A stretch of DNA of 64,000 bases from NCBI RefSeq assembly GCF_006345805.1, contig NC_043010.1, positions 27,342,001-27,406,000 of the forward strand. The letters run 5' to 3'. The DNA is from Octopus sinensis (Eukaryota). Below the pieces are notes generated by a model. That model was given only the letters and a program-made list of their open reading frames with translations. It made no database searches and was not told the origin of the DNA. Numbering within the stretch: the first letter of the stretch is position 1; each line of letters begins with the position of its first letter. This document shows, piece after piece, positions 3,219 through 60,861 of the stretch. The translations under genes and the position numbers were made by a program.

Positions 3219-3544
3219 AGTTCAGCAAATTAGATTCAAATGAATATGGTACTTAAATGCACCAGAATTTTGTATGGTGTTATCCATATAAATCCATGGG
3301 GTGATTATAATCAAAATAAGCAACAAGAATATCTTCGGTAGTTTGGTACGATCGTTTCACGCTACATCATTTTATTAAATATTGTAAGTATTACAACAGT
3401 TTTAGAATGTTGAGCAATCATCAGCCATTTATAGAGGTTTTCAACATTTTAAAACTGTCGTAATACTTACAATATTTAATAAAATGATGTAGCGTGAAAC
3501 GATCGTACCAAATTACCGAAGATATTCTTGTTGCTTATTTTTAT

Positions 3545-3545
<1 letters not shown>
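3219..3545. mobile_element. PLE-type pLTR fragment with ~100-bp inverted repeat, in (TA)n
   Basis: Arms 3313-3413 and 3441-3541 are near-perfect reverse complements. (TA)n on both sides. Contains a hammerhead motif. Confidence 0.75.
3344..3427 (-). ncRNA. minimal type-I hammerhead ribozyme motif (C3-G8)
   Basis: Minus strand reads UGG-CUGAUGA-[long stem II]-GAAA-C-GAUC-GUA-CCA, with a palindromic stem III (ACGAUCGU). Confidence 0.7.
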
Positions 3546-3606
<61 letters not shown>

Positions 3607-4088
3607 GAATTTGTGAAACGATGAAAATATAATGAGTATGGGCGTGTAGGCGAAATCAGCATGAATTATTCTCACTATTTCGCTATAAAAAAAAATGAAT
3701 TTAAAATAAGAAAGCTTTTCATTAGTAACAGATATTAACGCTGAGAACTGAGAATAGTTCTGCAGTATAAATGAATGTTAAGGTAATTTTATGAAATTTT
3801 AATGAATATTTTTTACGAAATTTTATTGATAAAAAAGACAATTTATTATGAACAATTAGAATATTGGTGAGCGGGAAAAATTAATTTGCATGTTTTATTC
3901 TTTTAAAAAACAATTCTTTTATTCTTTTACTTGTTTCAGTCATTGGATTGCGGCCATGCTATTAATATATTTTGAAGGACGGTAACAAACCAACGCTGGT
4001 GCAAGACGAACACAAACATACACAAACGTTAACATACAAGCATACACCTATATACATGAACATATATATACATATATATGTGTAATAT

Positions 4089-4148
<60 letters not shown>

Positions 4149-4220
4149 ATATATATGTATATATATGTTCATGTATATAGGTGTATGCTTGTATGTTAAC
4201 GTTTGTGTATGTTTGTGTTC

Positions 4221-4285
<65 letters not shown>

Positions 4286-5319
4286 AAAGTAAGATAGGGG
4301 TTGTGAATGTAACCCACTATGGGATATCAATTATCCAATATACAGTTGCTAAATTACCAAAATTCTTAATACACAAATGTTTTTAAGTGCAATGCAATTA
4401 ATTCATTTATTGTATTAAATGGGTGAAGGTAAAAAAAATTTTTACCGTAAATTTATAACACAAATAAGAAAATGGAGAAACAAATTCAACTCGTTCATCA
4501 ACTTACGGATAGGAAATATATACAAAAAATACCATACCTCCAACCCACAGTTTACACAGGTAGAGTAGAATAGTTAGTGGACTGTTAGGTAGATAAATGT
4601 ATGTATGTGAGTGTGTGTGTATGCCTTTTTTTTAATCATTATTATTTTTTTGTTTTTGTTATATTTTTTTATTTTTTATATATTTTTAAATTTTTTATTT
4701 ACTTTTTATTTTTTTTATTTTTATTTTTTGTTTCTGTATGTAAGCATTTAGATGTGTAAATAAACAATTTTACATTGTTTATTCATTTTACAAATGAGAA
4801 CATCATAAACAATGTAAATTTTAATATCCGTAAGTTGATGAATTTGTTTCTCCATCTTCTTATTTGTATTATATATATTTCGTTTTGGGATTTGGTTTGC
4901 AAAATTCTTTATATGAGTTCGTGTGTTGAAGCATATTCTGTTGTGTCTGGGGACACAAAAGGAAAATGACTCTCCCCGGACACAACAGTATATATATATA
5001 TATACTTCACTTTCATCGCGACCTATATATATACATACAGTTACGGCTGCAAAGGTTTGTTTCAAAGTAGAAAACAAAGGAACACCTAGATGTGTATACA
5101 ATCCTAGTTGTATTTGTAAAGTATAATTGTTTATTAAATTTATATTAAATTTAATATCTATTTTAAATTATATTTAATTAATCCTATTACCTATATACGA
5201 AATGAAACGAAAACAGGTTAAATGTGTATGGAATACAAAAAGAATATCGACGTCGATAAAGCATATTATGTCCTGTTATTTGTCCAGAAATCATTCTGAA
5301 ACCTACAAATCTAAATAAT

Positions 5320-5382
<63 letters not shown>

Positions 5383-5383: not shown

Positions 5384-5746
5384 TGCATCTCTGATCACGA
5401 GCAGAAGTAGTGGGGGAGCATCATAGCCATGTGTTGAGAGGGATTCTTTGGGATTTGAATAAATCACCTCTGGAAACATGGGTGGTTCTTTCAACATCCT
5501 TAAACAACTCTTATTCAGGGACCTTTTGAGCGGGATGGGCTACTCAACCTGAAGAAAATTCTAACTGGGCCCCACCTGCAAGGTCATGTGCTGTTTAGCT
5601 TGATATGAGATCACAATATCGCGCACATATGGTTGTGATGCATGTGCCTGGTGTACCCTTATCAGACGGGTAGTCATGATGGGTATATTGGGCTTCGTAT
5701 ATTTTACCCCAGTGTCACTTTGATGGCATGAACTGTTCTCTCACTC
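5383..5746 (+). mobile_element. (AAT)n-flanked retroelement 3' fragment, copy 1
   Basis: Closely similar to 8171-8531, with the same 3' end (CTCTCACTC) running into (AAT)n and a different 5' end. Confidence 0.75.
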
Positions 5747-5804
<58 letters not shown>

Positions 5805-5861
5805 GTAATTATAATAATATTAATAATAACAATAATAAAAATAAAAACAACAACAACAACA

Positions 5862-5928
<67 letters not shown>

Positions 5929-5935
5929 TAATAAT

Positions 5936-7909
5936 AGCCTACCACATAGCTGGATAAAGAAATGCCTGGAAATGTATAAAATAGCGCCTACTCTGCGAAA
6001 CTTTTTGCCTGTAAGTATGAGATCATGGAGAACCGCACTAACTTTGAACAGTGACGATGAATCTCTAAATGCTGGTGATGTAAAAATTTCATGTGGCATT
6101 TTCCAGGGCGACTTACTATCACCACTCCTCTTTTGTTTAGCCTTAATGCCTGTCTCAAAATTGCTCAATGACGCACAGTACGGATATAAAATGTTGGATA
6201 AAAATATAAATCATCTCATTTACATGGATGATTTAAAGCTCTTTGCAAAAAATGACCAACAACTCAAGGGCTTACTAACGACTGTTAAACAATTCAGTGA
6301 TGACATCAGAATGCAATTTGGCCTCGATAAATGTGCAAAAGCTACTTTTATCAAAGGAAAAATGACAGAAACATCTAACGTTTACCTCGACCAGCAGAAT
6401 GTCAGCGGAAAGCTACAAGTACCTAGGAGTAATTGAAGGAGAAGGAATAAAGTATTCATTGATGAAGGAAAGGATGAGGAGAAAATGTTATCGCAGAGTA
6501 AGAGCAATACTCAAGACAGAGCTGAATGCAAGAAACAGGATCGAAGCAATCAATGCTTTAGCCATACCAGTCGTGACTTACAGTTTCAAAATCGTTAACT
6601 GGTCAATTACTGAAATATGTAATCTTGACAGAAAAATACGAAAACTGTTGACAATGTATAGAATGCACCACCCTAAGGCAGATATAGATCGACTTTATCT
6701 ACCAAGAAAAGAGGGGGGCCGTGGGCTTTTACAACTGGCAATAACAATGAAGATTGCTACAATTGGCCTAGACACCTATCTGAAAAACTCTGAGGACTGG
6801 ATGTTAAAACTTGTCTCAAAACATGAAAACAAGAAAGCATCATACTCAGTAACAAAACAGGCAAAGGAATATCTAAGTGAATTCCGAATACAACAAATTC
6901 CGGAATTAGACATACAAGAAACAAGCACAGAAAAAGCTAAGCGCATGAAAACCCGTGCTAAAACTGCTGCCTTAGATATTCTGAGTGATAAATGGCAAGA
7001 AAAACCTCTCTATGGCAAATACCCAAAGAGAGCGAATAATGCAGATGTTGACAAAGCCCTGACCCATCAATGGCTAATGGCCTCCGGCTTAAAATCTGAA
7101 ACAGAAGGGTTTATCATAGCAGCTCAAGATCAATACCTACCAACAAGGAACTACCAGGCCAACATATTAAAGAACGGCAGTAGCCCAACATGTCGTGTAT
7201 GTCAATAACAAATGAAACCATTGATCATGTTGTCTCCAAGTGCAGTCTTCTAGCACCTACAGAGTATCTCAACAGGCATGATAGAGCTGCACAATATATT
7301 CACTGGGTAATCTGCAAAAACTTGGATTTGCCCCATGAAAAAAACTGGTGGGAACACAAACCACCTCCAGTGAAAATGACCACATCTCACTCCTCTGGAA
7401 CTTTCCCATTCAAACTGACAGAAAGATAGATGCAAATAGGCCAGACATCATATTGAAAAACTTCAGACAAAAAACATGCCTCCTCATTGATATGACTGTC
7501 CCAATCGATATAAACGTATCTGTCAAGACCGACCAAAAACTGAGCAAATATAAAGATCTTGAAATAGAAATCAGCAAATTGTGGAACCTGAAGACTAAAA
7601 CAATACCTGCTGACCACTACCTAACTCAGATACCAGGAAACCCCAAAATGGCAGAAATTCAAAAGATAGTGCTCAGGGGAACTGCTCATATCCTACGCAA
7701 AATACTTTCTATGTAATCTCAAGTTTTAAAACAAAAATAATTTTCTTTTTTTTCTTTTTTTTAGGCATTCACTTGCACAACACTAAATACAAAACCAAAT
7801 ATATGGCACACTAGGCATAACAACAATACGAACTTCCAGCCTGTTGTCTCTTGAGGTCACTGGGTGAGACTTGGAGCCAACTTGTACAAATATAAAACAA
7901 AAGTCAAAC

Positions 7910-9154: not shown

Positions 9155-10080
9155 AAATCCGAATGGAGTAACATCCAGACCCCATTCAGGAGGACCATTC
9201 TATAACCACCCCTCTCTCTCTCGTTTACATGTAATCCTTACATACATGTTGCAACGCGTGGTGCTAAAACACTTATGTGCAATTATATATAACTGTATGA
9301 GCGTACGTTGTTTGATACGTATGTGCGTGTGTGGTGCTATAAAAAAATGCACATGCATGCACAAATGAGTATGTATGGATGTATGTATGTATTGTATATG
9401 TATGCGTTTATACATGTATAAAATAAATAAAAAAAAGAGCAAATATAATACATGTTCGATTTTTAACCGTTGCCCTTGTATACTGTGTCGTATTTTGTAT
9501 GTATGTGTGTGTGTGTGCGTATATATGTTTATGCGTGTGTGTGTGTATGTGTGTAATAGAACATAAGTATGTAGAAGTGGATAAGCATATATGTGTATAT
9601 AATTTAAGATTATAAGTATATTTATGAGTGTGTCTATATGATTGTGTGTACTTGTGTATATGTGCACAGTTGCACCTAAACGTTGTATCCATTCACAGTT
9701 AGACGATAATGAGAGGAACAAACACACGCCCACACATATATATGTGTGTGCGTCTATACAAACATATGTGTGTATATATACAACCTTCAACAAAGTAAGT
9801 CATGTACACAACTTTCACGGACACATACCAGTACACGGACATACGTTCACATGCACATACACATGTACACACACAGACGCGTCTGCCCATTCTCCTAGAT
9901 ACTCACATACATACGTAGCACATGAGTACAAACATACATACATACCTGCGTATAGGCATACCCACGTACATAGGCATGTACATGTACGCACACACATACA
10001 TACGCACATGCGTACGCACGTGCATACACACATACATACATACATACATACATACATACACACATACATACGTATATATA

Positions 10081-10655: not shown

Positions 10656-10796
10656 CATACATACACACAGGCGTACGTACGTACATATACACATACATGC
10701 ATGCATGCATACATGCGTGTATACATACATACACACATATATACGTGCATATATATAACGAACTAACTGTTACTTTCTCAGATGCAGCACGGATTT

Positions 10797-10844
10797 TTGT
10801 CAGTGAATAGGTCGCGGTCTTATAGCGACGAAAATATTTTGACA
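10797..10844 (+). ncRNA. hammerhead-like motif (G3 family; G3-U8 in this copy) within PLE-type fragment 10757-10930
   Basis: UGUCA-GUGAAUA-G-GUCGC-ggucuuaua-GCGAC-GAAA-AUAU-UU-UGACA. Same family as 29234-29281, with a different loop II and an identical stem II. Confidence 0.6.
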
Positions 10845-15589: not shown

Positions 15590-18500
15590 ATGGCTGCCCC
15601 CTCGTTATCGAGTATGGCCATTGCTCGAAGCTTAACTGTTACTGGTGCTGTGATCGAATGTGACTTTTTAGCCCAGCTAAAGATCTACAATGTCTTGTAC
15701 AGAATTGGCAACTAAAACCTTTACTGGTAATAGCCGGCTGTAGTTGTAACTGGGCTTCATGTACCTTTGCATGTCGTTTAAGTCCTCCTGCCGAATTACA
15801 CTCTCTTCCACATGCCCGACAGTGACAACCACCACCAGTGGCCAGGTTGTCACTCATCTGTCTCGTTTTATGACTACGAAGATGACTCTTGAGTCCAGCT
15901 TTACTGAAGCAGGGTCTTGCACAGACATTGCATGTCAGCATCAAAGGAAGACCCTTCTCTTCTGGAAGTGTAACAGCGATGCCCTTCCTGACATCCCTCC
16001 TTACTTTCTCATGTGCAACTCGAGATTTCTCAAAAGTGACTGTCCCGTCATGCACAATCCTTCTCCACCTGCTACGATCCCATGTGTCAGGAGAGATACA
16101 AGCATCTCTTAAGGAAGCCTTCGGCAAGTCGTTATATTTCTTTTTTGGTTTATGTGGAGGTCGTTCTCCTTTAGCTAACTCTCCATAAAAGAGTTGTTTT
16201 GGCATCCTTGAATCCTTCTGACCAGATGACCACTCCGTCTGAGCCTTTGCTTTAACATAAGAGCTTCAATACTTTCACACCGAGAGCCTTCCAATATTTC
16301 AAGATCACTGATGCAGTCCTTCCACTTAATGCCATAGATCCGTCTGAGACACATCTGATGGAAACGTTCCAGTTGTTTAAGGTGGTATTGATATGTGACC
16401 CACGTCTCGCAGGCATAGAGAAGAGAAGGGAGCACACATGTCTTGTACACCTTTATCTTTGTCTTTCTTCATATGTCTCGCCAACTCCAGAGGCGCTTTT
16501 CTAGCCTTCCGAAAGCAACACTTGCTTTCCTAATTCTATATGGAATTTCATCATCCAAATTGCTATATCTATTAATAGTGCTTCCCAGGTAGACAAACTG
16601 ATCGACTACATCAAGTCGTTTACCATACACATAGATATTTGGTACACTATACTGCTTACAGGGGGCAGGTTGATGCATGACAACAGTTTTCTTGAGATTG
16701 ACTGTCAATCCTAAGGCAGTGCAAGCATCAGAGAATGCATTCAAAATGTGTTGCATATCAATCTCTGCGTGTGCTACTAGCTCACAGTCATCTGCATACA
16801 AAAGGTCTCTTATGATAGAGGTAAATATCTTTGTTTTTGCAGCAAGGCTCCTGATATTAAATATGCTGCCAGAGGTTCGATAATGGACGTAAACACCGTA
16901 TCTGCAGTTTCTGAATGCAATACAGAACACCATCGCAAAATATATGGAAAATAGGGTCGGTGCCAGAATATCCCCCTGTTTCACTCCATTTTGTATTGAA
17001 ATGGGCTCCGACATTTTCCCTCTAACATTCACCCTACCATTCATGTCTTCATGAAAAGACCCAACCAAAGCAAGGAACTTTTCAGGACACCCAAGTTTCT
17101 GGAGGACTTTCCACAATGCTTTTCTATTGACGGTATCAAAGGCTTTTGTCAGATCGACAAAAACCTGATGCAAATCCAGACCCTGTTCCACACACTTCTC
17201 CTGAAGCTGTCTAGCTGAAAAGATCATATCAGCAGTGCCACGTCCCACACGAAAGCCAGATTGACTTTCTGGAAGAACACAATCCAGAAGTATTCTGCAT
17301 AAAACCTTTGCTTTAACACAAGAGCTTTCCTACGGCAGACAGCAAAGATACTCCCCTATAATTACCACAATCATTCCTGTTGCCCTTTCCCTTATACAGG
17401 ACCACCATTACTGCATATCTCCAGTCCTCAGGTACAGATTCACTAGTCCATATCTTACCAAAAAAAGAGTGAAGTTTCTGCAGAAGTTTCTCACCACCAT
17501 GCTGTAACAACTCCGCATGTATGCCATCCATACCCAGAGACTTCCCATTATTCAACCTTGAGACAGCCATTGCAACTTCTTCCAACTTTGGTGGTTCTGC
17601 GAGTGCTGCCTTCACAGGCAATCCAAGGATGAGATTGAGAACATCCTCACTAACTACAGACTGCTGATTGAAAAGTTCATCAAAGTGTTCTTGCCACCTT
17701 CGCAGAATTCCTTGTGAATCACGAAGAAGTTCTTTACCATCCCTGCTTCGGAGTGGTGTCATCAGGGAAGACGTCGTTCGCAGAATTCCTTGTGAATCAC
17801 GAAGAAGTTCTTTACCATCCCTGCTTCGGAGTGGTGTCATCAGGGAAGACGTCGGTCCATAAACTTCTCGCAAGAGACCATACAACAGCTTTGTGTTATT
17901 GGAATCTGATGCCGTCTGTATCTCATCAGCCTTCTTACTCCACCACGTATCCCTCATCTCTGAGAGCCTTTGCCTCACACGTGATTTTATGTCCTTGAGT
18001 TCCCTATGCAATACTTCCCTTTCCTGTGGCTTTGCTGACAAATAGCGTGACGAAGTACATCTTTTATCAGCCAATAAATCATCTATATGTTCATCATTTT
18101 CTTTAAATCAATATTGATGCTTTCTTTGTATTAATCCCAGAAATTTCTTGCCTATATCATAAACTGACTTTTTAAGGGTCGGCCAATCCTCCCCAATATC
18201 TGCAGCATTCATTTCCTCTCGTAAAGTTCTCTTCACACTATTATACCTAAGACGATCAACAGTAAGTCTTTTAGGTAGGGTAATCCCTGCAGCTCGGATT
18301 TTATGTTTTGTGACTAATTTCACTTTTGCGAGTACTAGGCGATGGTCAGTCCAACACTCAGCTCCACGAAGAACAGGAACACACTGCACATCCTGTCTGT
18401 CACGCACCCTAACTAGGATGTAATCCAGAATATGCCATTCTTTAGATGCAGGGTGCATCCATGTAGTCTTAAACTTATTCTTTTGTTGAAACATGGTATT

Positions 18501-19832
18501 GGTAACACACAGACGCAGCTCCTCACACATCTGTAGCAAAAGCATGCCATTACTATTACACTTCCCCACTCCATGCTTTCCAATTACAGTCCATGTGTTA
18601 AAATCCCCACCCACTCTAGCATTAAAGTCACCCAGTACGATGACTTTGTCTGCCCGAAGGATATTTCTTATAATGCCCTTCAAAGCATGGTAGAAAGAAA
18701 GTTTTTCGTCATCAGTATAGCACATAGTTGGAGCATACACACTCACCAAGGTCATATAATTTCCTTTAGCCAAAGGAATTCTCATGGACATAAGACGCTC
18801 GTTAATTCCGATTGGGAATCCTTCAACAGCAAATGCCACTCCAGCTTCTCCTCTAAACTCTTCATTCCTCCCTTTCCAAAAGAATGTATATTTTCCACAA
18901 GATTTTGTAAGATGACTATCTCCAGGTAATCTCGTCTCAGATAAAGGAACGATGTCAGGATCATAGCGTTGAAGCTCCTTCGCAACAAGCGCAGTCCTTC
19001 TTTCAGGACATTCAGAGGTCTTGCGGTCACGCAGTGTCCGTACATTCCAACAGCCAATATTCAATATTTTCTTTGGTTCTATCACAGTAGCATGATGATG
19101 GCCGGGTTCAGACTGTGATGCTCTGGAGCCCCTGTCGGGCCAGACTCTTTCAGCTGATGTGGTTCCAGAGTCCTTACTGCCATTTATTTTTATACTGTTT
19201 TGATACATCATTGATTTTTTGCTTTTTAAGGCTACAGCCAGCCATTCAGTTGAGACTCACAGTGCCATCAACAATCAGGAATTAGTTAATCAATTTAATC
19301 AATCAATCACTGTTGTTATCGTGCAATGCCTGTGCAAGAAGATTTTTTTTTTAAAGTGAGGAAAGGCTGTGCACTGAGTCAATCCCACTCACTAAGCAAC
19401 AGCAGCCATACTCCGAAAAGAAGAACAAGTCAACATCATCGGTAACCACTGAGCCGCAGGTTTTATGTCGGAGTTATCCCAGTTACCTGAGTTACCTTCT
19501 CCTAGAAGGATGCCCTAACAAAGGCTAGGAGTCCTTCACTCCCAATGGTTTAACTGCGCGATCGGGTAGTCAGTCCGATTATTTCTATGTCCCCGCGCAT
19601 GATACAGCCTTAAGCCTTACGAAAAAAAAAAACTACACGTTTATTGGATGGCCGTTGACTCTCAAGAGTTCCTCCGCCCTTTGACGGATTTTGTTTTTCA
19701 TCCCGCAGGGTTTCCAATAAACACCCTCCTCACCAAGCAAGCTTGGTGGGGTTGCCGGTTTAGTCGCCGACGACCCGACCATGCAACAGGTTGTACTGGG
19801 TTACATGTTACCAGTAGCCCTCGAAAGTGACT

Positions 19833-19836: not shown

Positions 19837-19869
<33 letters not shown>

Positions 19870-20038
19870 TAATTGTTATCGCCATATTAATATGGCAGTC
19901 TTATAGATATAAGACTAAAAGCTGTCGCTGATTAGCTCCATGAGGCCATCGCCTTAAGATAGCTATTTGACACACAAACTGTGTCCATTATAACCTTCGA
20001 ACAAGGGAGGTCAGCCGCTTCACATTGCCAGTCAGACA

Positions 20039-20081
20039 GCTACAGACGCATTTCAGGGTATTTGCCCTTTGTCAATGTAGC
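20039..20081 (-). ncRNA. minimal hammerhead ribozyme motif, U3-A8 variant
   Basis: GCUACA-UUGACAA-AGGG-caaaua-CCCU-GAAA-UGCG-UC-UGUAGC, with a perfect 6-bp stem I. Confidence 0.7.
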
Positions 20082-20380
20082 GTAGTCGACCCAGCAGGTG
20101 TCGCCACCGATCGTCTCTGTTCGAAGGTTTTATTTACCTAGTTTCGGTGGAATACATCCAGTTGTTTTCAATAATAGAAATATTAAAATTACTAAGTCTC
20201 TCTAAAAGAGATTACGGCAGCGTTACTGGAAATTAATTGTTATCGCCATATTAATATGGCAGTCTTATAGATATAAGACTAAAAGCTGTCGCTGATTAGC
20301 TCCATGAGGCCATCGCCTTAAGATAGCTATTTGACACACAAACAGAGACGATCAGTGGCGACACCTGCTGGGTTGACTAC

Positions 20381-20423
20381 GCTACATTGACAAAGGGCAA
20401 ATACCCTGAAACGCGTCTGTAAC
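20381..20423 (+). ncRNA. minimal hammerhead ribozyme motif, U3-A8 variant
   Basis: GCUACA-UUGACAA-AGGG-caaaua-CCCU-GAAA-CGCG-UC-UGUAAC, with palindromic ACGCGU and a GUC cleavage triplet. Confidence 0.75.
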
Positions 20424-20644
20424 TGTCTGACTGGCAGTGTGAAGCGGCTGACGTCCCTTGTTCGAAGGTTATAATGGACAGTTTTGTGTGTCAAATAGCT
20501 ATCTTAAGGTGATGGCCTCATGGAGCTAATCAGCGACAGCTTTTAGTCTTATATCTATAAGACTGCCATATTATATGGCGATAAAATTAATTCCAGTAAC
20601 GCTGCCGTAATCTCTTTTAGAGAGACTTAGTAATTTAATATTTC

Positions 20645-20699
<55 letters not shown>

Positions 20700-22953: not shown

Positions 22954-23024
22954 GCCAGCTATGAGACTCGAACTCACACCTCCGTGATTACGTGTCGCGG
23001 TGCTCTGAGCCATTAAGCTAAACT
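22954..23024 (-). pseudogene. 5'-truncated tRNA-like sequence (Thr-CGT-like)
   Basis: D-arm GCTT/GAGC, anticodon loop CA-CGT-AA, T-arm GTGAG-TTCGAGT-CTCAT, 3' acceptor AGCTGGC, TTTTT shortly downstream. The first ~3 nt are replaced by (TA)n. Confidence 0.6.
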
Positions 23025-23274: not shown

Positions 23275-23315
23275 TAGAGTTGAAAAAGTCTCAATGACTA
23301 AAACCAGTACTAAAA
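23275..23315 (+). ncRNA. degenerate hammerhead motif (U3-A8) in PLE pLTR fragment ~23125-23370
   Basis: AG-UUGAAAA-AGUC-ucaau-GACU-aAAA-CCAG-UA-CU. Homologous to 45465-45565 (-). Confidence 0.5.
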
Positions 23316-29030: not shown

Positions 29031-29083
29031 GGAGATGTACTCGCATAGCAAGTAATTTGATCTGAGATCGTGTGCTGAAACGA

Positions 29084-29366
29084 AAACAATTGCAGCGTGG
29101 AAGGTGATTATAAGCCATTTAAGAAACACACAAAAGCCGTTCGATTCACTTCAACATTTAAGTTTAATTTGTAAAAATATTTTCGTCGCTAAAATCCGCG
29201 ACTGTTCACTGACAAAGTCCGTGCTGCACGGACTTGTCAGTGAACAGGTCGCGGATTTTAGCGACGAAAATATTTTGACAAATTAAACTTAAATGTTGAA
29301 GTGAATCGAACGGCTTTTGTGTGTTTCTTAAATGGCTTATAATCACCTTCCACGTTGCAATTGTTT
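29084..29366. mobile_element. ~283-bp near-perfect palindrome of a PLE-type pLTR in (TA)n
   Basis: Centre GTCCGTGC-T-GCACGGAC at 29225. Arms are ~140 bp with few mismatches. Confidence 0.85.
29234..29281 (+). ncRNA. minimal hammerhead ribozyme motif, G3-C8 variant (mirror copy 29169-29215 on -)
   Basis: UUGUCA-GUGAACA-G-GUCGC-ggauuuua-GCGAC-GAAA-AUAU-UU-UGACAA. Confidence 0.7.
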
Positions 29367-33722: not shown

Positions 33723-33864
33723 AGTATATATACTTATATATATATATATGTATATATGTATATGTATATGTGTATATGTATATATGTATATGTATATATG
33801 TATATGCATATGTATATATGTATATATGTATATGTATATATGTATATATGTATATGTATATATG

Positions 33865-45444: not shown

Positions 45445-46973
45445 GAAAAGGAACACACGAGTTGATATATATGAAAAAATAAGTCAGGATAGAATATGCT
45501 AAAATAATTTTATAAAGAACATTTCAGTACCGGTTTCAGTTGTTGTGACATTTTCAACTGTAACAATTAAATAATTAAATTTAGAAAAATTAAAAGAAAA
45601 GTTTTTTAAAAGAATATTTGTATAGTGGTCAAATATAAGTGGCATTTTCCTTGTTTCTGCCTGTCTCTGTCTCTCTTGTTTACTCTTGTGTGCTCAAGGT
45701 CGTTGTGAATTCTTGGTAGGGAAGAAGATGAAGGAGGAGGAGGGGAGGAGGGGAGGAAGGATACGAAGAATTTGGGAGTGCCTTGATTGTGGTATTTTGA
45801 ATGGTCAGTGAATGCTAGCAGTTGCTGTTCAATTCATGAAAATATTTCTATTGAAAGTTTTGCTTATACAATTTGCGTAGGTGTTATACTAAAAAGCATT
45901 AGTGATAAAGTTAGGAAGAAGAAGAAGGAAGAAGAAGAAGAGAAGAAGAAGAAGAAGAAGAAGAAGAAGAAGAAGAAGAAGAAGAAAGAAAAGGGAGAAT
46001 ATGAATGAGTGAAAGTAGTGAGGTGTTGGATGACAAAGTTGACACGTTATGGATTATAGCAGTGATTGGGGCTGATTTTTAATGGATTCTTAGGAATATA
46101 ATATTTGCGTGTGTATTTGTGTTATTCTAAGGCCGAGGTGGATATATCGTTTGTCGTAGATGCGTTCAGAAGGGGCCTGTATTTGTAATAAAGAGAGTTT
46201 CTTTACTAATTCGTTGGTTCCAGTTTGTATCGTCCCTGAATTGGTAGAGGGGAAAAATCCTGAAGCTTGGAGTTTTGTTGTTGGCGCAAATATCTATGTG
46301 TTGGCTGAATGCTATTTTTCTATTTTGGGGAATATTTATTTGGGATCTGTGCAGGGCCATTCTTTTACGTAAACTATTTTTTGTTTGGCCTATGTATTGC
46401 TCTTGATACCCAGAGCAGGTTAGTGTGTATATCAAGTTCTCCGAAGCACACGTGAAGTTGCTTTTCACTGTGAAACGTTGTCCCTGTTTGAAGGAGAACT
46501 CTGATCCCTCAATTAGATAATCGCATATCGCACAATTGGGCCTTCCACATTTTTTTACTGTCGGTTTCTATGTTGGTGAGCTTATTCGGGCTTGTGTTAG
46601 GAGACTTTTCATAAATTTGGGCTGTCTCTTGCTTTTTATAATCGTCTGTGTTTGGAGGATTAAGTTCATTCTGTGGTCCTTTTCTAGCAGGGGTATGTTT
46701 TGGAGGATGGTGTCGAAGGCTTCATTGTCGAGAGGGTTGTGTGTGGAGATGTATGGTAAGGCTTTAGGTCGTAAATTTTTCTTTAATTTGGGATGTCTGA
46801 GTTCCTGGATGTTGAATGCATCTGTCAATTAGTGAAGGTGGTTAGTTCCTGGTGATGAGGGTATCTTTTAGTTCATGTAGTCATGTGTCTCTGGTGTTTG
46901 CATTAGAAACTATAGTACATATCCTTTTTGCTAGATTGAAGGGGATATTCATTCTGGTGTGTCTGGGGTGGCA
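45445..46973 (-). mobile_element. 5'-truncated Penelope-like element (RT thumb, Cys linker, GIY-YIG endonuclease, pLTR); Neptune-like
   Basis: CHPRHTRMNIPFNLAKRICTIVS; LPYISTHNP; CGRPNCAIC; FTCASENLIYTLTC..QYIGQTKNSLRKRM..H..KE. Hammerhead-like motif at 45522-45563 (CAG-UUGAAAA...GAAA-CCGG-UA-CUG). Confidence 0.85.
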
Positions 46974-48785: not shown

Positions 48786-48815
48786 ATATATATATATATA
48801 TTATATATATATATA

Positions 48816-49980
48816 TAAATGAAAGAATGGAGTCGAACGACGATTTTAACAAAATTCCTTTACTCTCGACATATGTTTCGAAGACTACATACTCTTAATT
48901 CCGAAGGAATAAAGGGTGCATTATGCCGCCTTCTCATCAATATAACTTTCAAGCTGGATTGGTCCATATTGTCTGTATCCTTTCCTTTTGATAAGGGCAG
49001 GAAATATTGTGGAGTCTGTAATTCCGAACTATTCTATATCCTTTTCGCCAAGTTCCCCTTGGTAAACACAATAATAGAAAAATCCTATAAGTGCATGCAT
49101 TGGCAGAAGCACACTTTCCACTCATATGAATGATGATTAATATAGATAACCTCTTTGATTTAATAATTTAGTTCCATTTCTACAACACCACCATAGACAA
49201 ATCTTTTTTTACACTCCGTTACATGATGAACTACTACTAAATTTCGTTGGGGTATGTTTCACCTCTGTCTCTCTACCTCTCCCCCTCTCTCTCTATCTCT
49301 ATCATAAGCACAATCAAATACACAGACACAAACCTCACCACTAAATGTATTTGGCATTTGTCCCCCCACACACACAATCACGCACACACACACACACACA
49401 GGCACGAATGCAGTTATATACATACACACACATAGACACTCAAACTCATTAGCAAAAGCAAACAACCACGCATCCCCATACATGCAGCTTGCACTCTGTC
49501 CCGTTCCTATTCTTAGAACTTTCTCCTTCCAACCATTTTTGAACTCTTGAACTTTTTAGAACCTTCTCCATCCAACCTATTTTGACGTCATTGCTTATAA
49601 CGGAATATTTTAAAGAAACACTCATTATTACTGTGGACTTCATGTGGGCAGTCATCTAAAAGTTTTTGTTCGTCATGATGCTGACATAGGTTCCTTGTCT
49701 TTCCTGATGAGAAGGCGGCATAATGCACCCTTTATTCCTTCGGAATTAAGAATATGCAGTCTTCGAAACATATGTCGAGAGTAAAGGAATTTTGTTAAAA
49801 TCGTCGTTCGACTCCATTCTTTCATTTACTTATAGTTAAAAAAAGACACAAATTTCCACACGAAAACACGGGATTTCTGCCCTTGGCATGTAGCTTCAAC
49901 CGTGTTTTCTGACGTGAATTTGCTACCCGGGTATCGGTTAACCGAATTATCCATGCTAGGATAATTCATTCACCTACTTA
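48816..49980 (+). mobile_element. 5'-truncated Penelope-like element with an inverted 5' pLTR piece
   Basis: 48940-49133 encodes LDWSILSVSFPFDKGRKYCGVCNSELFYIL..LVN..KCMH, resembling a PLE endonuclease C-terminus (CxxC..CxH; Naiad-like). 48816-48939 is the reverse complement of 49705-49828. (TA)n on both flanks. Confidence 0.8.
49699..49781 (+). ncRNA. type-I hammerhead ribozyme, canonical core
   Basis: CUUUC-CUGAUGA-GAAGGC(g)GCAUA...UAUGC(a)GUCUUC-GAAA-C-AUAU-GUC-GAGAG. All core nucleotides, a GUC triplet and palindromic ACAUAUGU are present. Confidence 0.85.
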
Positions 49981-51616: not shown

Positions 51617-52190
51617 GAGGGTGAATAAATTGCCGTGCATATTACGCAAAGAGGATAGTAACACTGACATCTCATTTTAACAGATATATTTACCAAAATT
51701 ACATAAAAATTTCTTGAAAGACTAAAAAGTAAATTGATTCAATAGAATCGCCATAGGCTTCAACCACGGCCTTCAGACAACTTCGGAATCTCCTGCAACT
51801 CTTCTGAACGGTTTCTTTGTTTAAGTTGGTGAATACTGCCATAATCCTTGCCTTCAGTTCATCTTTGGTGTTACAAGTCGTCTTGTTCCTCTCTCGCTCA
51901 ACTACACCCCACACATCAAAAGGGTTGCAGTCTGGGGAGTTAGGTGGCCAGCTGTTAGGGGTGATGTGGTCGCAGAAATTATCTGACAGCCATGGCTGGA
52001 TTCTCCTGCTTGTGTGGTATGGTGCAGAGTCCTGTTGCCAGACATAAAGACTTCCAGCAGCCACACTCTTGACCCAGAGCAACACTACCTCCTCGACGCA
52101 CTTGATATAGGCCTCGGTGTTGAGTCTGAGGTCGTGTGGGAAGATGATTGGAGGCATAACGTCGCCATCACTAATGATCACTTCAAACAC
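51615..52190 (-). mobile_element. Tc1/mariner maT (DD37D) transposase 3' relic
   Basis: ORF 51699-52190 contains WQQDSAPYH...WPPNSPDCNPFD, with 37 residues between the 2nd and 3rd catalytic D. TIR-like CAGAGGGTG at 51615. Confidence 0.85.
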
Positions 52191-52195
52191 CTACT

Positions 52196-54600
52196 TGCAT
52201 GGTCTTCCACGACTCTCGGCAAGAGAGGGGGAGTGTTGTGAAAGACCCATCACAGCCGTGGACGTACGGGATGCGATGGCAGGCTTGGATGGTTTGCCCT
52301 ACGAGTTCTATTGTCATATGCCAGACTTGTTTGGAGGTGTCTTGGCAGCGGTCTGTTGCAACTGGCAGCAACACGAAGCGAAGAGTTGTGGCTCTGCTAA
52401 ACAATGATGCAAGCAAGGGAAACGTCATAGATAACTTCAGGCCTATCACTCTGCTCAACGCAGATTTGAAGATTTTGGCCAAGGTGCTAGCCGAGACGTT
52501 GGAGCTTGTCATCGAGAAACTGTTCGAAAAGGCACAAACATGCGCCGTGCTGGGAAGGATTATCCATGACAACCTCCATCTGATGCGCTACATCATAGAC
52601 AGGTTAGTTAAGGAACCTGGTATGGGCGGGGCCCTGATCAATTTGGATCAATCAAAAGCTTTCGATAGAGTCGACCATCGCTATTTGGAAGCTGTCCTTA
52701 GAGCGGCTGGTTTCGGTCCCGTTTTCCGCGGTTGGATCGCTGCCTTATACAGCAGCATCCGCACGGTAGTTCGCGTAACTGGTCATCTGTGCAGACCATT
52801 TAACATCACACGTTCGGTCCGTCAAGGATGCCTCCTCTCGTTGCTGCTGTACGTACTAGAGCCACTATTGCGGAAGCTGGCGACGCTGAGGGGCTTCCCG
52901 CAAGAACTGGGATTCAAGAGGAACGTGTCTGCATACGCGGACGACGTCTCCGTGATAGTGTCTAGCCATAGGCATATCGACCTGGTCGCCGAGACACTAA
53001 AAGAATACGAAGCGGTAACGGAATGTAAAATCAACCGGGAAAATTCTGTGGGCTTGCGACTCGGCACCTGGGGAAGCAAGCTCATGCTGTCCAACAGCGT
53101 TTCCATCGTGGGACGCCGGACTGACGGATCAGTTAAATTGCTCAGAGTCTGGTTCGGTCCGGACCTCCAAATGGAGAAGAATTGGGACGAGATAACGAGT
53201 AGGGTGGCCACTCTCACCCAGCAATGGGCCGAGAGGAAGCTATCCCTAAAAGGTCGGGTGGAGGTGGCGAACGCATATATTGCTTCTGTCATCGGTTACC
53301 GTCTGATCGTCGTGCCTTGTCCCGACTCTACCATCACTAATCTGAACGCATACTCTTCAACTTTTTGTAGAAGGGAAGCGTTCCTATGGTTAGGCGATAC
53401 ATTTTCTGTCAATACACGCTAAATGTAGGGCTGGGCATGCCTTGGTTGATAATGCGTAGACATGCGCTGCGACCGCGACGTCTCTGGCGCTTCATAGACG
53501 ACGGTGAACAGGTTTGTGAGGCGCGCTTTCCCGCAGCAGGTCTCTTTGGCCGGACTTCAGTTGTGGATCAAACAGAGACCGAGGCTAGGCGAATGGCACC
53601 GCGAGTGCTGCCTTGCTCCCAAAGCAACTCTGCCGTCCAGGACCAAACTTGTGCGACTTCAATTCCACGAAGGCGTTCTATAGAGGATTAGTGGAGGGGA
53701 GGTGGGATGACGTTCTCTGGGAGAATCTGGGCATCGACGAGGAATACCTGACTCGCCAGTTGAGGACAACTTTCGGGCCGGGACCTATGGACAATCACCA
53801 GAGATTCCTGGCCTGGCAATGCTATCGGGAAGCATGGCCCGTTCGGTATAAGCTCTACAGGCACGGTTAAAGATACACCGGACCGACTTGCCCGAGATAC
53901 GGTCAGAGCGACAAAACCGTTCTGCATGCACTCGTGCAGTGTCCAACCATTTCGGACCTGTGGGCTTATGCCGAACGGCAGCTGTCACATGTGGGACGAA
54001 TTTGGTTGTCGGCCGAGTCTATCGTGAAAATTGCTCCACCACCTTCCCTCAACCGGGAAGGCAAGCCAGTTTTCATCGTACTGGTGGCCATGGTGAAAGA
54101 ATGTATATGGTGGACTCGAGCGAAAGGTTTAGAGACAAACACTTTCCTCTCTGGCCAATTGCTTATCAACGTTTTCAAGTCCCACTTGAAAAGGAAGGTG
54201 AGAATAGAGGGGCAAGTTTTGTCTCATGAAAGATTCAATAAAAGGTGGATGAATGCAGCAAAAATGGTACGCGTGAATGACGAAACCACTTTGAGCATGC
54301 TCCTGTAAACCCCCCCAAAAGAGAGAGAGGGCACTTTGCTCTCATGTGATTTTTTTCCCTTCCTGCCTGATGTTACCGTAGGCTTGTCTCTCCACGGATA
54401 AACCTAATCTGTTTTTTTTTACATTTTTACTCTATGCTGTGATACACGAACCCTTTTGATCGGATTTTTTTTATACGATCCCTTTTGATCGGAACTTTTT
54501 CCTCCTTCTTTTCAATTTTCCCTTTTTTTCCTTTCGAAAAGAAAAAAAACTCTACATTGTATTTAGTCCCCTTTGTGTCGGCCCTGTGTGAATAATAAAG
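52196..54600 (+). mobile_element. 5'-truncated Tx1/L1-clade LINE, copy 1
   Basis: NFRPITLLNADLKILAK, LDQSKAFDRVDH, VRQGCLLS, AYADD, C-terminal Zn-knuckle remnant, AATAAA and (TATC)n tail 54602-54678. Confidence 0.92.
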
Positions 54601-54601
54601 A

Positions 54602-54678
<77 letters not shown>

Positions 54679-54679
54679 G

Positions 54680-57600
54680 TCTGAAACAAATATGCCACGA
54701 TACAGGTTCGCTTCAACAGCGAAGAAAGAGCGAAAGAACTTTCGACGCTCACATTACAGTCGGAAAAACTAATTTTAATTCCGACCTACCTTGGTCAACG
54801 CGTGACCAAAATTTCGATTAAAAATGTCCCTCCAGAAATAGAATCACAATGGCTGTTGTCAGCGGAGGAAAATATAAATATTCCGGAATATGCCGCCTTG
54901 GAGGAAAAGAAATGGTCGGGGAAAGTGGTTCAGTTATTGATGCAAATTGATCAAAACCAAATCAATAACATCCCCCACCAAATTGAGCTGCCAAACGGCA
55001 ATTTCCTTTACGTGGTGGTAGAGGGTGGGAGGCCTCGCTGTTACTTGTGTGGCAGCGAGGAACACCTCAAAAATTATAGCCCAACAGCAAAAAAAAACAA
55101 CAACAAAAACAAGAACAAGAACAACAACCACAACAAGGAAAAAATCAAAAGAAAAAAGAACCACTACTACCCACACAACTATCAGCACAGAGGACAAGCA
55201 AAGGGAATACGGAACCAAACTCGCCAACACCAACAAATGAACATACAACAACATCTGAAAAAACACCAACAACAACAGCAAGAACAGAACCATTACTACC
55301 CACACCACCATCAGCACAGAGGACAGACAAAGGGAGTAGAAAACCAAACCCGCCAACACCAACAAATGAACATACAACAACATCTGAAAAAACACCAGCA
55401 AGAACTAAAGAAACAGTAAAACCAAAAGACAATACAAAAACTGTTTCCCCTTCCCCCACATCACACACACCACACACACAAGCAGTCAACAACCAGCATC
55501 AACGAAAACAACAACACAACCAATTACACAAACATACATTGAAGCCTACAACATGCCCCTACCTCCTTCCGATTCCTCGGAAATTTCGTCGGAAGACGAA
55601 AGCACTGAGGAATGGCAAATAGCCAGAAAAGGAAGGAGGAACAAAAAAAGAACAAAATCCAATACAAACGCAAACAAAGCAGAGAGATATGCATCTCCCG
55701 AAGACATCTCAAACCCTACCACAAACAATATCAACGCCACAAAAATATATAAAAAGAATATGCTCACAGCCATCGAGACCAAAAGCACAGAGTTGATGAA
55801 ATACATCAATACAAACACAAACATTACAGAAAACGACATTAAAACGAACAATCACCCACAAACAAAACAACCAGAACACATAAAAATTTATCACATATCA
55901 CCAACATTGCACCACACACTAAAGTCCCTCTATCCCAATGCGGTAGGGGGATGTCATAAATATTTACGTAAAAACAGCCTCCTTGATGAAAAATCAAAGG
56001 AGGAGACAAATCTTTCGAAAGGTAACTCTCCTTTCCTTTCGTTTGTGTTTTAAAGCACACAACTCAATAGGCTCATGGTCAAGATTGGTTGTGTGAATGC
56101 GCGTGGCTTGGGGTCCCTTGGAAACAAGGGTACCTTTTAAATGACATCAAGTCACATAATTTGGAAATCATAGCAATGAGTGAGACCAGACTCCATGAAC
56201 CCTTGACCCTAAAGTCCATGTTTGGCGAACAGTTTAACATTTATTTTTCTCCCTGTCCGCCAAGAATGGGCGGTAGTTTGTGGTACTTTTTCGCAAGAGT
56301 CTGGATCTCGAAGTAAAGACGATATTCGTAGACCCGGAGGGTAGACTGGTTGTCCTGGATGTCGACGGCAATGATGGGTGCGCTTTTCGACTCGTATCAG
56401 TCTACGCACCGCTTTTAACAGGTCGGCCGGATTTCTTTCGACGTCTAGAAGTATTCCTGGGAACGTCTCGTCCTTTACCTTTAGTGGGGGATTCGAATGC
56501 TACCTTGGACACGCATTTAGACTACGTGGGGAGAGACGAAAATAGACGGGGATGTAAATGCCTCAGAGACCTGCACAGACGCTTTCAACTGTCTGACAGG
56601 TACCGACTCGACGACCTAAATGTGCCAACGGGGACATGGAGCAATCGCATTGGGTCGTCGAGATCGTATCTAGATAGGATACTATGCAGGACAGCAGCTA
56701 GGGATAGCTTAGGATGTCCACAATTTCACATAGTCAGCTACACAGATCACAAACTTGTGACGTGCACGCTAGACTTAGATTAGGCACATAGGCAGGGTCC
56801 CAGTTACTGGAAACTGAACGCGTCTTTCCCGTCCAGACAGGTTTTCAGAAACCGAATTAGCACACTAGTAAAGAGGGCTTTGACGGGAGCCATCGTCAAC
56901 AACAAATGGTGGTTCGCCCTCAAGAGAGCAGTAAAAGCAGAAGTCATTAGGTATAGCAAAGCACTAGCCATAGATAGAAACAGAGTAGAGAGTGAGCTAG
57001 TTAAGAAGTTAGAAGAGGCAATAAGAAGCGGCATCACATCCGACGTTTTGGCGGCGAGGTTGGCCCCCGACAAACATTTCAACGCCAAACACGAAGGGTG
57101 TGCTGTCAGGGCTAGGATGCGTGCTCTAAGGATGGAAGGTGTTGGAGACGCGAGAGAGGCCCAGGTGGCGGAGGCGCAACGGGGCAACAAAGCCACCATT
57201 CGGTCTCTGGTAGATGAACAGAGACGCGAGTTGCTCGAGCCGAGCAAGATGTGCGAGGCGTTTCAGCAGCATTTTGGCCGGCTGTTCGAGAGGAGTGGCG
57301 AGCGAGAACGCAGTTTGAACTTCAGCCTGCCACGATTCTCGACAAGAGAGGTGGAATGCTGCGAAGGTGCCATCACGACGGCAGATGTGGGGGACACAAT
57401 GGCAGAATGCTCGAGAGACAAATCGCGGGTTTGGATGGTCTGCCCTACGAGTTTTACAATTGTATGCCAGACTTGTTTGAAGACGTCTTGGCAGCGGTAT
57501 ACTGCAACTGGCAGCAAAACGGGAGCATACTCGGTTTTGCGAGCCGAGGAGCCGTAACGCTACTGAAGAAAGATCCAAACAAGGGGGACATTATAGATAA

Positions 57601-59647
57601 CTTTAGGCTCATCATTCTGCTCAATGCAGACCTGAAAATTGTGCCCATGGTGTTAGCCAAGAGGTTGGCGCTTGTCATCGAGAAACTGGTCGACAAGGCG
57701 CAAACGTGCGCCGTGCCGGGCCGGAGCATCCATGACAACCTCCATCGATGCGCTACATCATAGACAGAGTAGTTAAGGAATCTGGCATTGGTGGGGCCCT
57801 GATCAATTTGGATCAATCGAATGCTTTCGATAGGGTAGACCATCGATACTTGGAGGCAGTCCTTAGAGCGGCTGGTTTCGGTCCCGTTTTCCGCGGCTGG
57901 ATAGCTGCTTTGTACAGAGGTATCCGTTCGGCAATTCGCGTAAATGGACATCTATCGAGACCTTTCGACATTGCACGTTCGGTCCGTCAGGGATGCCCCC
58001 TCTTTCGCTTCTATACGTATTGACTCTTGAGCCACTACTGCGGAAGCTGGCAACTCTGAGGGGCATCCCGCGAGAACTGGGATGCGGGACGAGCGTGTCT
58101 GCATACGCGGACGACGTCACCGTCATAGTGACAAGCCACGAGCACATCGAGCTGAAAGACTACGAAGCGGTGACAGGAGCAAAAATCAACCGGGAAAAGT
58201 CAGCGCCTCCGTCGTGGGACGCTGGACGGAAGGCCCAGTCGAGTTGCTCGGGGTCTGGTTCGGTCCGGACCTCCAAATGGAGAAGAACTCGAACGAGATA
58301 ACGAGTAGGGTGGTCACTCTCGCCCGGCAATGAGCCGAGAAGAAACTGTCCCTAAAAGGTCGGGCGAAGGTGGCGAACACGTACATCGCGTCCATAATCT
58401 ATTACCGCCTGACCGTCGTACCTTGTCCCGACCCTACCATCACCAAACTAGAACGCATTCTCTTTCACTTCTTGTGGAAAGGATGCGTCCCGATGGTCAG
58501 GCGATCCATTTGCTGTCAACACCCGTTAAAAGGAGGACTGGGCATGCCGTGGTTGATGATGCGCAAACACGCGCTAAGACTGCGACATCTCAGGCTCTAC
58601 GTAGACGACGGTGAACAAGTGTGGTCGCCGTTTGTGAGGCACGCTTCCCCGCAACTCGTCTCCATGACCGAACTGCAGTCGTGGATCAAAAAAGGCCAAG
58701 GAAAGGTGAATGGCACCGCGAGTGTCGCGTTGCACTCAACCAACTATGCCATCCCGGGTCGACCCAAGCATTCTATAGGGGATTATTGGAGGGGAGGTGC
58801 GACGACGATCTTGGGGCGAACCTGGACGTCTACGAGGAATACCTGACCCGCCTGTTCGAGACGACTTTCGGGCCAGGGCCCATGGACAACTTCCAGAGAT
58901 CCCTGGCCTGGCAGTGCTACCGAGAAGCGCTACCCGTTCGGGATAAGCTCTACAGACACGGCTCGAGAAACACGGGGCCGACCTGCCCGAGATGCGGTCA
59001 GAGCGACGAAACCGTTCTGCACGCACTTGTGCAGTGTCCAACAATTTCCGACCTGTGGGCTTATGTCGAACAACTGCTGTCACGTGTGGGACGAGTCGGT
59101 TTATCAGCCGAGTCTATCGTCAATATCGTCACGCCTCCTTCCTTCAAACGGGAAGGAAGAGCTATTTTTATCATCCTTGTGGCTATGGCGAAAGAATGTA
59201 TCTGGTGGATGCGTCTAAAAGGATTGGAGACAAACACTTTCCTCACTGGTCAATCTCTCATCAACTTCTTCAAGTATCACTTGAAAAGGAAAGTGAGAGT
59301 AGAGAGGCAAGTTTTGTCTAGCGAATGTTTTAAAAAAAGATGGGTGAATGTAGCAAGAATGGCACGTATGAATGACGAAGCCACCTTGAGCATAATCCTA
59401 TGAACCTGGAAATTGAAAACAGAGGATTACCTACTTGCAAATAAATGTGGTAACATGTAACAATATTAACCGAGGTTACCGTGGTCTTTTCCGTAGGCTT
59501 TTCTCCCCACGGATAAACCTTATCTGCTTCCCCTTTACACCTTACATCTATGATACACGATCCCTATTGATCGTTTTTTTCCCTTTTGTTTCCCTTTTTA
59601 TATTTTCTTCCGTCTGTGTGCATCCCTTTGTGGCTAATAAAGAATCA
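54680..59647 (+). mobile_element. near full-length Tx1/L1-clade LINE, copy 2 (ORF1 remnant + frameshifted ORF2)
   Basis: ORF1 has a zinc knuckle CYLCGSEEH. ORF2 starts at 56075 (MVKIGCVNARG), with APE (VGDSNA, YLDRI, TDHKLV), RT (LDQSNAFDRVDH, RQGCPL, YADD) and CPRC..ETVLHALVQC. AATAAA, then (TATC)n 59648-59723. Confidence 0.93.
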
Positions 59648-59709
<62 letters not shown>

Positions 59710-60417
59710 CCTATCTATCTATCAATTAGAATTGAAAGAAAGTCTTGTTGAACTTTTAGCATGATCATTTTGAATATTCTTTTTCAAAGGTTACCATATA
59801 ATAAACATTAATTTTTATATACGATAGTTTGTTCTTTTTTTTTCTTTATTTATAGATTACTTTATACCATAGTGGTTAAATTTGTATAGACTTTAGCTTT
59901 TCAAAATGAGTAAAATTACGCCTACAGCAGACATTCAATGCTGCATGAATTCAAAAGATGCTCTTCAGCAATGGAAATGGTAAGAAATATCCGTCCTGTC
60001 AATGGAAATGAAGTTTTAAGTTCCCGGTTATGCTAAAGATAATTTGGCCAGTTTCGTGCGGGAAATTTTTCTGTCGCTAAATTTCTATAATCTGGACAAT
60101 CAAATCTATTTATACTAAGCTTCTGGAAACCATATTAGAGGAAAATCAGGGGCAAGCTGCACGGAAGTTAGCAAAACAGTTCACGTCACACTTCGATTGT
60201 AAAACATCTTATGGGATTAGGAAAAGAGTCAAGACTTGGTCAATGAGTCCCTCATTATCAGACTGCTTCTCAGCTCAATCAAAGGGTTGCCTTCTATTCG
60301 TAATTGAACAGAATTGCTACCGAAACTTTCCTGGATAGAATTATCACAAGTGATGAAGAGCGTAATTTCTACATTATTTACATTTGACGGATATTTGTCT
60401 TCATCTTGTTTGTTGTT

Positions 60418-60463
60418 AATACAACGTTTCGGCTGATATACCCTCCAGCCTTCATCAGGTGTC
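60418..60463 (-). ncRNA. minimal hammerhead ribozyme motif (C3-G8)
   Basis: GACAC-CUGAUGA-A-GGCUG-gaggguauau-CAGCC-GAAA-CG-UU-GUAUU. Confidence 0.7.
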
Positions 60464-60668
60464 TTGGGGGAAATTTCGAACCTGGGTTCTCATTCCTAAG
60501 GTATTTTTCGATGTTATCATCATCATTTCAGGTCACTACCTGGAATCGAACTCGGAATCTTGGGGTTAGTAGCCCACGCTCTTAACCACAGCGCCATATG
60601 CCCGTGGGCGTAGGTTCAGAGCGCGGACTACTAACCCCAAGATTCCGAGTTCGATTCCAGGCTGTGAG

Positions 60669-60733
<65 letters not shown>

Positions 60734-60815
60734 TAACAATAACAACAACAACAACAACAACAACAACATCGAAAAATACCTTAAGAATGAGAACCCAGGT
60801 TCGAAATTTCCGCAA

Positions 60816-60861
60816 GACAACTGATGAAGGCTGGAGAGTATATCAGCCGAAATGTTGTGTT
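60816..60861 (+). ncRNA. minimal hammerhead ribozyme motif (C3-G8)
   Basis: GACAA-CUGAUGA-A-GGCUG-gagaguauau-CAGCC-GAAA-UG-UU-GUGUU. The consensus of the two copies restores stem I GACAC/GUGUU and palindromic AACGUU. Confidence 0.65.

Follow-up and report, generated by a model that had tools for sequence, protein, structure and literature searches.

Type-I hammerhead motifs in repeats of Octopus sinensis, most of them Penelope-like elements, with three Watson-Crick versions of the 3:8 core pair

Hammerheads in the repeats of Penelope-like elements (PLEs), their dimer architecture and variants with a U3-A8 pair have already been published (Cervera and de la Pena 2014, PMC4209133), with about 1,300 U3-A8 hammerheads in Schistosoma mansoni. 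For PLE hammerheads, it is also known that the palindromic helix III pairs and that cleavage takes place after position 17 (PMC4209133, PMC6765202). Natural U3-A8 covariation and a U10.1-U11.1 mismatch were described by Perreault et al. 2011 (PMC3088659). In Anolis, the Poseidon element PAc has a ribozyme that depends on the protein of the element, an engineered C3G/G8C change partly restores its cleavage, and insertion in vitro is not affected by mutations of the hammerhead (Frangieh et al. 2024, PMC11167929); G3-C8 is also described as an engineered variant in PMC3884650. A further type of unit, the retrozyme that lacks long terminal repeats (non-LTR retrozyme), is described in Cervera and de la Pena 2020 (PMC7229834) and bioRxiv 10.64898/2026.07.22.740005. 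Cutting by PLE hammerheads is slow and was dispensable for insertion in vitro. Here, we analyzed a 64,000-nucleotide (nt) stretch of the 2.72-Gb genome of Octopus sinensis (NC_043010.1, our contig C14:27342001-27406000; hereafter the window), which contains ten hammerhead-type sites. The feature is real and is mostly a known system: the sites are probably type-I hammerheads, predicted to be self-cutting, of five PLE families and of a 365-nt repeat, with pairing of core positions 3 and 8 likely kept through selection on master elements.

An initial annotation, made from the letters alone, had reported these ten sites, and all of its cores and coordinates were found in the sequence, including the G-U combination at 10797. 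The sites start at 3344 (minus strand), 10797 (plus), 20039 (minus), 20381 (plus), 23275 (plus), 29169 (both arms), 45522 (minus), 49699 (plus), 60418 (minus) and 60816 (plus). They belong to six dispersed repeat families (A to F), and a search of the octopus genome with each family gave 40 matches among 40 scored candidates. Two sister families of E, named G and H, were found by following the open reading frame (ORF) of E and were not among the sites reported initially. The hammerheads in the window are the following.

3344..3427, minus strand: family A hammerhead, C3-G8, with a 3-bp stem I, palindrome ACGAUCGU and A17; its stem II is long and has a U.U mismatch at its start
10798..10844, plus strand: family E hammerhead, decayed (G3-U8), with a bulged G after A9, palindrome AAUAUU and U17
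20039..20081, minus strand: family C hammerhead, U3-A8, with a 6-bp stem I, a 4-bp stem II, palindrome A(C/U)GCGU and C17
20381..20423, plus strand: family C hammerhead, inverted second copy
23277..23312, plus strand: family D hammerhead, broken (G12 changed to A, stem I damaged)
29235-29281, plus strand: family E hammerhead on the plus arm of a fold-back, with G3 at 29240 and C8
45525..45560, minus strand: family D hammerhead, U3-A8, with palindrome ACCGGU and A17; stem II damaged
49700..49780, plus strand: family B hammerhead, C3-G8, with a long stem II, palindrome ACAUAUGU and C17
60419..60462, minus strand: family F minimal hammerhead, C3-G8, with a bulged A, palindrome ACGU and U17
60817..60860, plus strand: family F hammerhead, inverted partner, with pair 2.1:1.1 broken

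Features in common with the PLE hammerheads of PMC4209133 are type I, a short stem I, a G10.1-C11.1 pair, a palindromic helix III and, frequently, U17, and families E, F, G and H share the bulged base after A9. In both cases the copies are mostly single and truncated or form opposite-strand pairs, and U3-A8 is present. Unlike those hammerheads, octopus families A and B have a stem II of 50-60 nt and 8-nt palindromes, family E has a G3-C8 pair that was not found in the main-text parts and Fig. S3 rows examined of that paper, and three 3:8 states occur within one octopus clade. The octopus also shares U3-A8 with PMC3088659, the section of which on core variants (section 8) does not name the G3-C8 of family E. 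PAc (PMC11167929) is similar in its repeat hammerhead, tail signature, uncleaved RNA template and lack of ends at the cut site; G3-C8, an engineered partial rescue in PAc, is the natural state of octopus family E, which has more than 5,000 copies.

Five of the six window families are located in terminal repeats of PLEs with reverse transcriptase (RT) and/or GIY-YIG endonuclease ORFs; a link was counted when the ORF lay upstream of the motif on the same strand. For family D, this was the case in 9 of 30 loci, and in the window its ORF remnant precedes the hammerhead at 45525 by about 570 nt. The family B hammerhead of the window follows an endonuclease tail, and longer ORFs are present in loci L253, L261, L269 and L336. 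In L230, the ORF that precedes family A is related to these and has a CxCX5C linker (L226 has the same upstream stretch), and in L215 the family's 5' repeat runs into an RT. The ORF adjoining an A copy in L239 was rejected as a family A link, as it belongs to H. For family F, a Penelope/Poseidon-like ORF was found upstream in one of 30 loci (L299). For family E, 29 loci were selected with nothing but an upstream query; the hammerhead is reached in 22 of them, the ORF is present in 21, and 16 have both (16/22 of the hammerhead-reaching loci, which is a co-occurrence count). Moreover, one natural E copy contains an 839-aa open frame (RT-endonuclease) that ends 1,040 nt before the core; it has a YVDD motif and a Pfam match to PF01541 (E 3.5e-5), and its relatives are named RT-domain proteins. 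For families A, B, D, F, G and H, the ORF was seen as pieces only. The features of the window that accompany the PLE hammerheads are listed here.

about 3218-3548: family A fold-back element that contains the 3344 hammerhead; the opposite arm lacks the core
9155..9202, plus strand: end of the family E GIY-YIG ORF (final 16 codons; 94% in tblastn against the terminal part of the E endonuclease), part of a 5'-truncated family E PLE copy reaching 10928
29031..29364, both arms: family E fold-back insertion in a (TA)n target; one arm has an extra tail of about 55 nt
46125..46973, minus strand: family D ORF remnant with RT thumb, long cysteine (Cys) linker and GIY-YIG (Pfam PF01541, E 1.3e-4)
48810..49979, plus strand: family B 5'-truncated PLE, consisting of an inverted partial copy (48810-48940), the endonuclease tail (48940-49133) and the 3' repeat

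Other PLE hallmarks were also observed, namely (TA)n or microsatellite targets, inverted 5' copies, a tail on one arm and a hammerhead in the 3' repeat. We saw no PLE copy with both repeats flanking the ORF, and a copy of E on contig C13 is 5'-truncated. Clade names (Neptune, Hydra, Nematis) are given by visual comparison of motifs. On this basis, family D, with its long Cys linker, appears Neptune-like, and families A and B appear to resemble the Hydra clade as it is described in PMC8557442.

We then compared the cores, taking one copy per locus after removal of overlapping and duplicated loci. The 3:8 pair is C-G in families A (32/33), B (38/39), F (37/41) and G (9/10), U-A in C (27/27), D (33/35) and H (7/8), and G-C in E (47/54). 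The letters U4 G5 A6, A9, G12 A13 A14, A15.1-U16.1 and H17 are the commonest ones in all eight families, and the family commonest letters retain the fold and a Watson-Crick 3:8 pair in each of them, despite the broken copies in the window. Differences from the commonest letter of a column are rarer in the core than in the flanks (50/2717 versus 595/17267 over the eight families), in copies that were chosen by similarity to the query, which itself weighs against this contrast. Shared variants affect a single core site out of 88, which is a CpG, versus 26 of 578 flank sites. Stems I and II contain compensatory changes, although stem I has just 3 bp in A, D, G and H. Shared stem variants mostly preserve pairing; the exceptions are CpG decay and the U.U at 10.1:11.1 of family D, a position that is A-U in 13 copies, G.U in 12, U.U in 4 and G-C in 3. 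The motifs had been called minimal hammerheads; this is correct for F, but C has stems of canonical size, and A and B have the long stem II and 8-nt palindromes. Likewise, the proposal that positions 3 and 8 change together applies between families, where the covariation is evident; within the alignments of the single families there is compensation in the stems and none at 3:8.

Could AT-rich repeats resemble such a loose pattern by chance? We used a descriptor that leaves positions 3 and 8 free and that was twice revised after the families had been seen. The sample consisted of 120 stretches of 10 kb at even spacing (1.2 Mb, on contigs C1-C10 only), in which the first version gave 15 real matches against 4 in the reversed and complemented sequence and 5.0 per shuffle, with an excess over background of 7 C-G, 3 G-C and 1 U-A. 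This background of 4-5 matches per 1.2 Mb favors chance, as does the finding that 4 of 15 singleton matches of the final descriptor are not Watson-Crick at 3:8 (11/15 are). With the final version, however, the same sample gave 16 matches versus none in the control at a score of at least 10, and 18 versus 2 at a score of at least 9, so the prediction that the motif frequency exceeds that of controls held. The 16 matches are C-G in 8 cases, G-C in 3, U-A in 2 and other in 3 (Watson-Crick in 13/16). In the window, the final descriptor found 7 matches versus 0 in the reversed and complemented sequence, one of the 7 being an artefact that bridges the arms of the E palindrome. Over all loci, it produced 27 clusters, 12 with at least two members and 15 singletons; 54 "C-A" matches in the E cluster were excluded from the 3:8 tallies, being artefacts that likewise bridge palindrome arms. 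Every multi-copy cluster has its own self-complementary helix III, and all 12 are Watson-Crick at 3:8 (8 C-G, 3 U-A, 1 G-C), for which the chance would be about 5e-4 if the families were independent, whereas they are related and six were preselected. Moreover, the motifs follow PLE ORFs, a known position for motifs of this kind, and show compensatory changes. Controls and ORF links thus refute chance for the six families, and we give this explanation practically no weight.

The descriptor also detected motifs outside the families described above. Five further multi-copy C3-G8 clusters (L069, L037, L288, L224, L099 and other loci) have mostly 6- or 8-nt palindromes. Another U3-A8 hammerhead, with palindrome ACCGGU, adjoins a D-related ORF at L169:8747 (plus strand). 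A lone G3/A8 motif with a 6-bp stem I and palindrome AGCGCU is present at L038:2545 (minus strand) and may be a decayed member of a second G-C or U-A family.

We turn to family E, with core GUGAACA and thus G3-C8, together with its sisters. ORFs lie upstream of family G (C3-G8) in L335, L342, L343 and L347 and of family H (U3-A8) in L239/L334. The endonuclease regions of the E, G and H ORFs are 39-45% identical, and in a tree of 116 columns, the bootstrap of which was not fully settled, they form a clade with one Octopus database protein, apart from 13 other relatives (support 95/93). All three have a C-terminal GIY-YIG domain, a short CX3CxxC linker and two Cys within the GIY-YIG core. By eye, this agrees with the short CX2-5CxxC linker and CCHH endonuclease of Nematis, and with the linker and Cys pattern of the Nematis rows in Craig et al. 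2021 (PMC8557442). In an alignment of ten E, G and H hammerheads, which represent three lineages and not ten events and for which shuffle counts are not probabilities, the 3:8 pair is G-C in 4, C-G in 3 and U-A in 3, whereas U4 G5 A6, A9, the bulged G, G10.1-C11.1 and U10.2-A11.2 are invariant. Two further stem II pairs are changed on both sides. The presence of three 3:8 versions in related families suggests that the cutting geometry has likely been kept by selection. That a single clade holds three natural versions of a tertiary pair speaks for selection on the catalytic fold, beyond the stems, and E, G and H are ready-made natural constructs for a comparison of rates.

We found no natural G3-C8 in the literature, including PMC6155905 and PMC11014351, with incomplete coverage of these sources and of their figures and supplements. 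The natural G3-C8 of family E and the three-way swap in one clade are apparently unreported, and their novelty is uncertain because the literature coverage is incomplete. It is conceivable, and we propose it tentatively, that E is the first natural high-copy G3-C8 family and that its lineage has cycled through all three pairs, tuning the speed of cleavage. A slow G3-C8 ribozyme would let uncleaved RNA be copied, with cleavage still selected in the master element, and this would account for the position, some 56 nt upstream of the cut site, at which E fold-back copies begin. The same starts would also suit a different explanation, that the E motif no longer cleaves and persists, either as a structural relic or as a fold for protein binding, in an element with no need of cleavage. 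The lack of an effect of hammerhead mutants on insertion of the anole PLE, the partial rescue by G3-C8 (PMC11167929) and the spread of Naiad PLEs without canonical hammerheads (PMC8557442) point in this direction. However, two changes are required to turn C-G or U-A into G-C, and they exactly restore a tertiary pair that the secondary structure does not show. E, G and H also agree in all remaining core letters, in the bulged G and in G10.1-C11.1, and the differences between E subfamilies are located in loop II. Indeed, contigs of four public runs on an E copy showed no core change at a level of at least 5%, while four loop II sites vary and two loop indels occur. Loss of cleavage in E is therefore unlikely in our judgement.

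We next consider scale and decay. The 16 intact-looking motifs per 1.2 Mb extrapolate to about 36,000 genome-wide (95% Poisson 21,000-59,000), and the non-CUGANGA ones to about 11,000 (3,700-26,000). With a search pattern fixed on CUGANGA, about a third of the sample's intact-looking motifs (5/16) would go undetected, including all of family E. The expectation of the initial annotation that such cores are overlooked is borne out to this extent, although U3-A8 had already been searched for and published (PMC4209133). These numbers are what could be expected if the individual genomic copies were working ribozymes selected by the host, a large hidden complement. An exact 20-mer of E has 5,058 genome copies versus 0 for the reversed control, and with positions 3 and 8 free and the other 18 positions exact there are 5,532. 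Of these, 464 are changed at one of the two positions and 10 at both; independent decay would give at most about 11 double changes. None of the ten is C-G or U-A, and 2 are A-U. As double changes are at the level of independent decay, selection would have acted on master elements and not on copies. Many copies also lie within fold-backs that are predicted to mask the motif. Host selection is contradicted for the bulk of the copies, and we regard it as very improbable. The claim of selected ribozymes can thus hold for master elements only, as positions 3 and 8 of the genomic copies undergo neutral decay.

In the mechanism that we envisage, the repeat would be transcribed and the motif would fold in its own RNA. 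Two palindromic helix III halves would then pair to form a dimer, or the element's protein would assist, and the backbone would be cut after position 17; cleavage might serve to process or to limit the transcript. The scattered genomic copies would be mostly inert relics that decay after insertion. In predictions for E, C, D and B, the dimer fold is better than two hammerheads folded as monomers.

A number of observations weigh against, or set limits to, master-element hammerheads that cut themselves in this way. In folding predictions, the dimer is not favored for F or H, and the hammerhead dimer of E lies 5.7 kcal/mol above the dimer minimum. Stem I is 3 bp or bulged in G and 3 bp in H, and the ORF link of H consists of one locus plus an untranslated region shared with L351. 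The 839-aa frame of E has no Pfam RT match. Rfam hammerhead models gave no match in the C region (E <= 10) or the F region (E <= 2), nor any in the window among the 150 of 275 matches listed. Covariation at 3:8 within a family is present neither in any family's alignment nor in the 5,532 E copies. Several window copies are damaged: 23275, where the conserved core is broken, 45522 (stem II mismatches), 60816, the left (minus) arm of 29169 (bulged G lost) and 10797 (C8 to U). The window contains no same-strand tandem, and all pairs are on opposite strands. With the inverted arms present, the predicted stem I probability is 0.00 at 29240, 49704 and 60821, so that three of the four tested sites are masked (the arm does not mask 20387), and at 10803 it is 0.02 at most in context. 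Given the opposite-strand pairs and the predicted masking, the window copies are probably inert relics. Finally, no gathering of copy 5' ends at the cut site was seen in seven families, and uncleaved RNA thus appears to be the template, as in the anole PLE. A pile of F 5' ends at -98 was rejected as a cleavage footprint because it is a microsatellite boundary, and three H alignments that begin 7 nt before the predicted cut site are too few to use. Of these three, the two copies that were inspected (L212:276-283 and L317:372) fold back at this position, which is the palindrome of helix III.

Family C is different from the other families, and here the claim of at least six PLE-derived families did not hold: a linked RT or endonuclease ORF was found in 0 of 29 loci, and an endonuclease beside a C copy in L058 was rejected because it belongs to a neighboring B-like element. 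Its insertion in the window is as follows.

19866..20650, both strands: family C insertion, consisting of a minus copy that is longer than the unit and an inverted plus copy of the 365-nt unit

The unit (365 nt, 41% GC) has no ORF. Copies are mostly single or inverted and often exceed one unit, and tandems are present in three places, L033 (three units), L037/L047 (one place) and L059. The 3' ends fall at two fixed points separated by about 60 nt, and a circle fold is strongly self-paired (z -4.8). In being an ORF-less unit within 170-400 nt with a type-I hammerhead, some tandems and self-pairing of the circle, C resembles the non-LTR retrozymes of PMC7229834. It differs from them in U3-A8, A10.1-U11.1, the single and inverted copies and the PLE-like two-point 3' ends. 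From its ORF-less unit, tandems, two fixed 3' ends and circle fold, family C fits a non-LTR retrozyme that would be moved by PLE enzymes, and it would add a retrozyme-like U3-A8 unit in a cephalopod.

The window is rich in microsatellites and retroelement remnants. For one of its elements, a protein of 98% identity is assigned to Octopus vulgaris by its source. Remnants of family H at 4534-4998 comprise an ORF tail, the untranslated region and the 3' end, and the hammerhead is missing. Broken non-LTR retrotransposon ORFs of several kinds are present at 5732-7716 (plus), 15639-19256 (minus), 32714-33733 (minus) and 52178-59403 (plus). A transfer RNA (tRNA)-like match at 22957-23024 (minus; 30.6 bits) exceeds the gathering score and is probably a tRNA-derived repeat. 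Within the F repeat, at 60515-60685 and about 130 nt upstream of the hammerhead, there is a tRNA-like stretch with words like an A-box and a B-box; Rfam gave no tRNA match in this stretch. A run of CTAAC, pyrimidine tract and CAG lies directly upstream of the E hammerhead at 10755-10790. This run, which also occurs in L302-L330, resembles a 3' splice site or an initiator. The centers of E fold-backs fall within a few bases of it. Beside an E copy in L007 (minus), an open frame of about 400 aa resembles an innexin gene.

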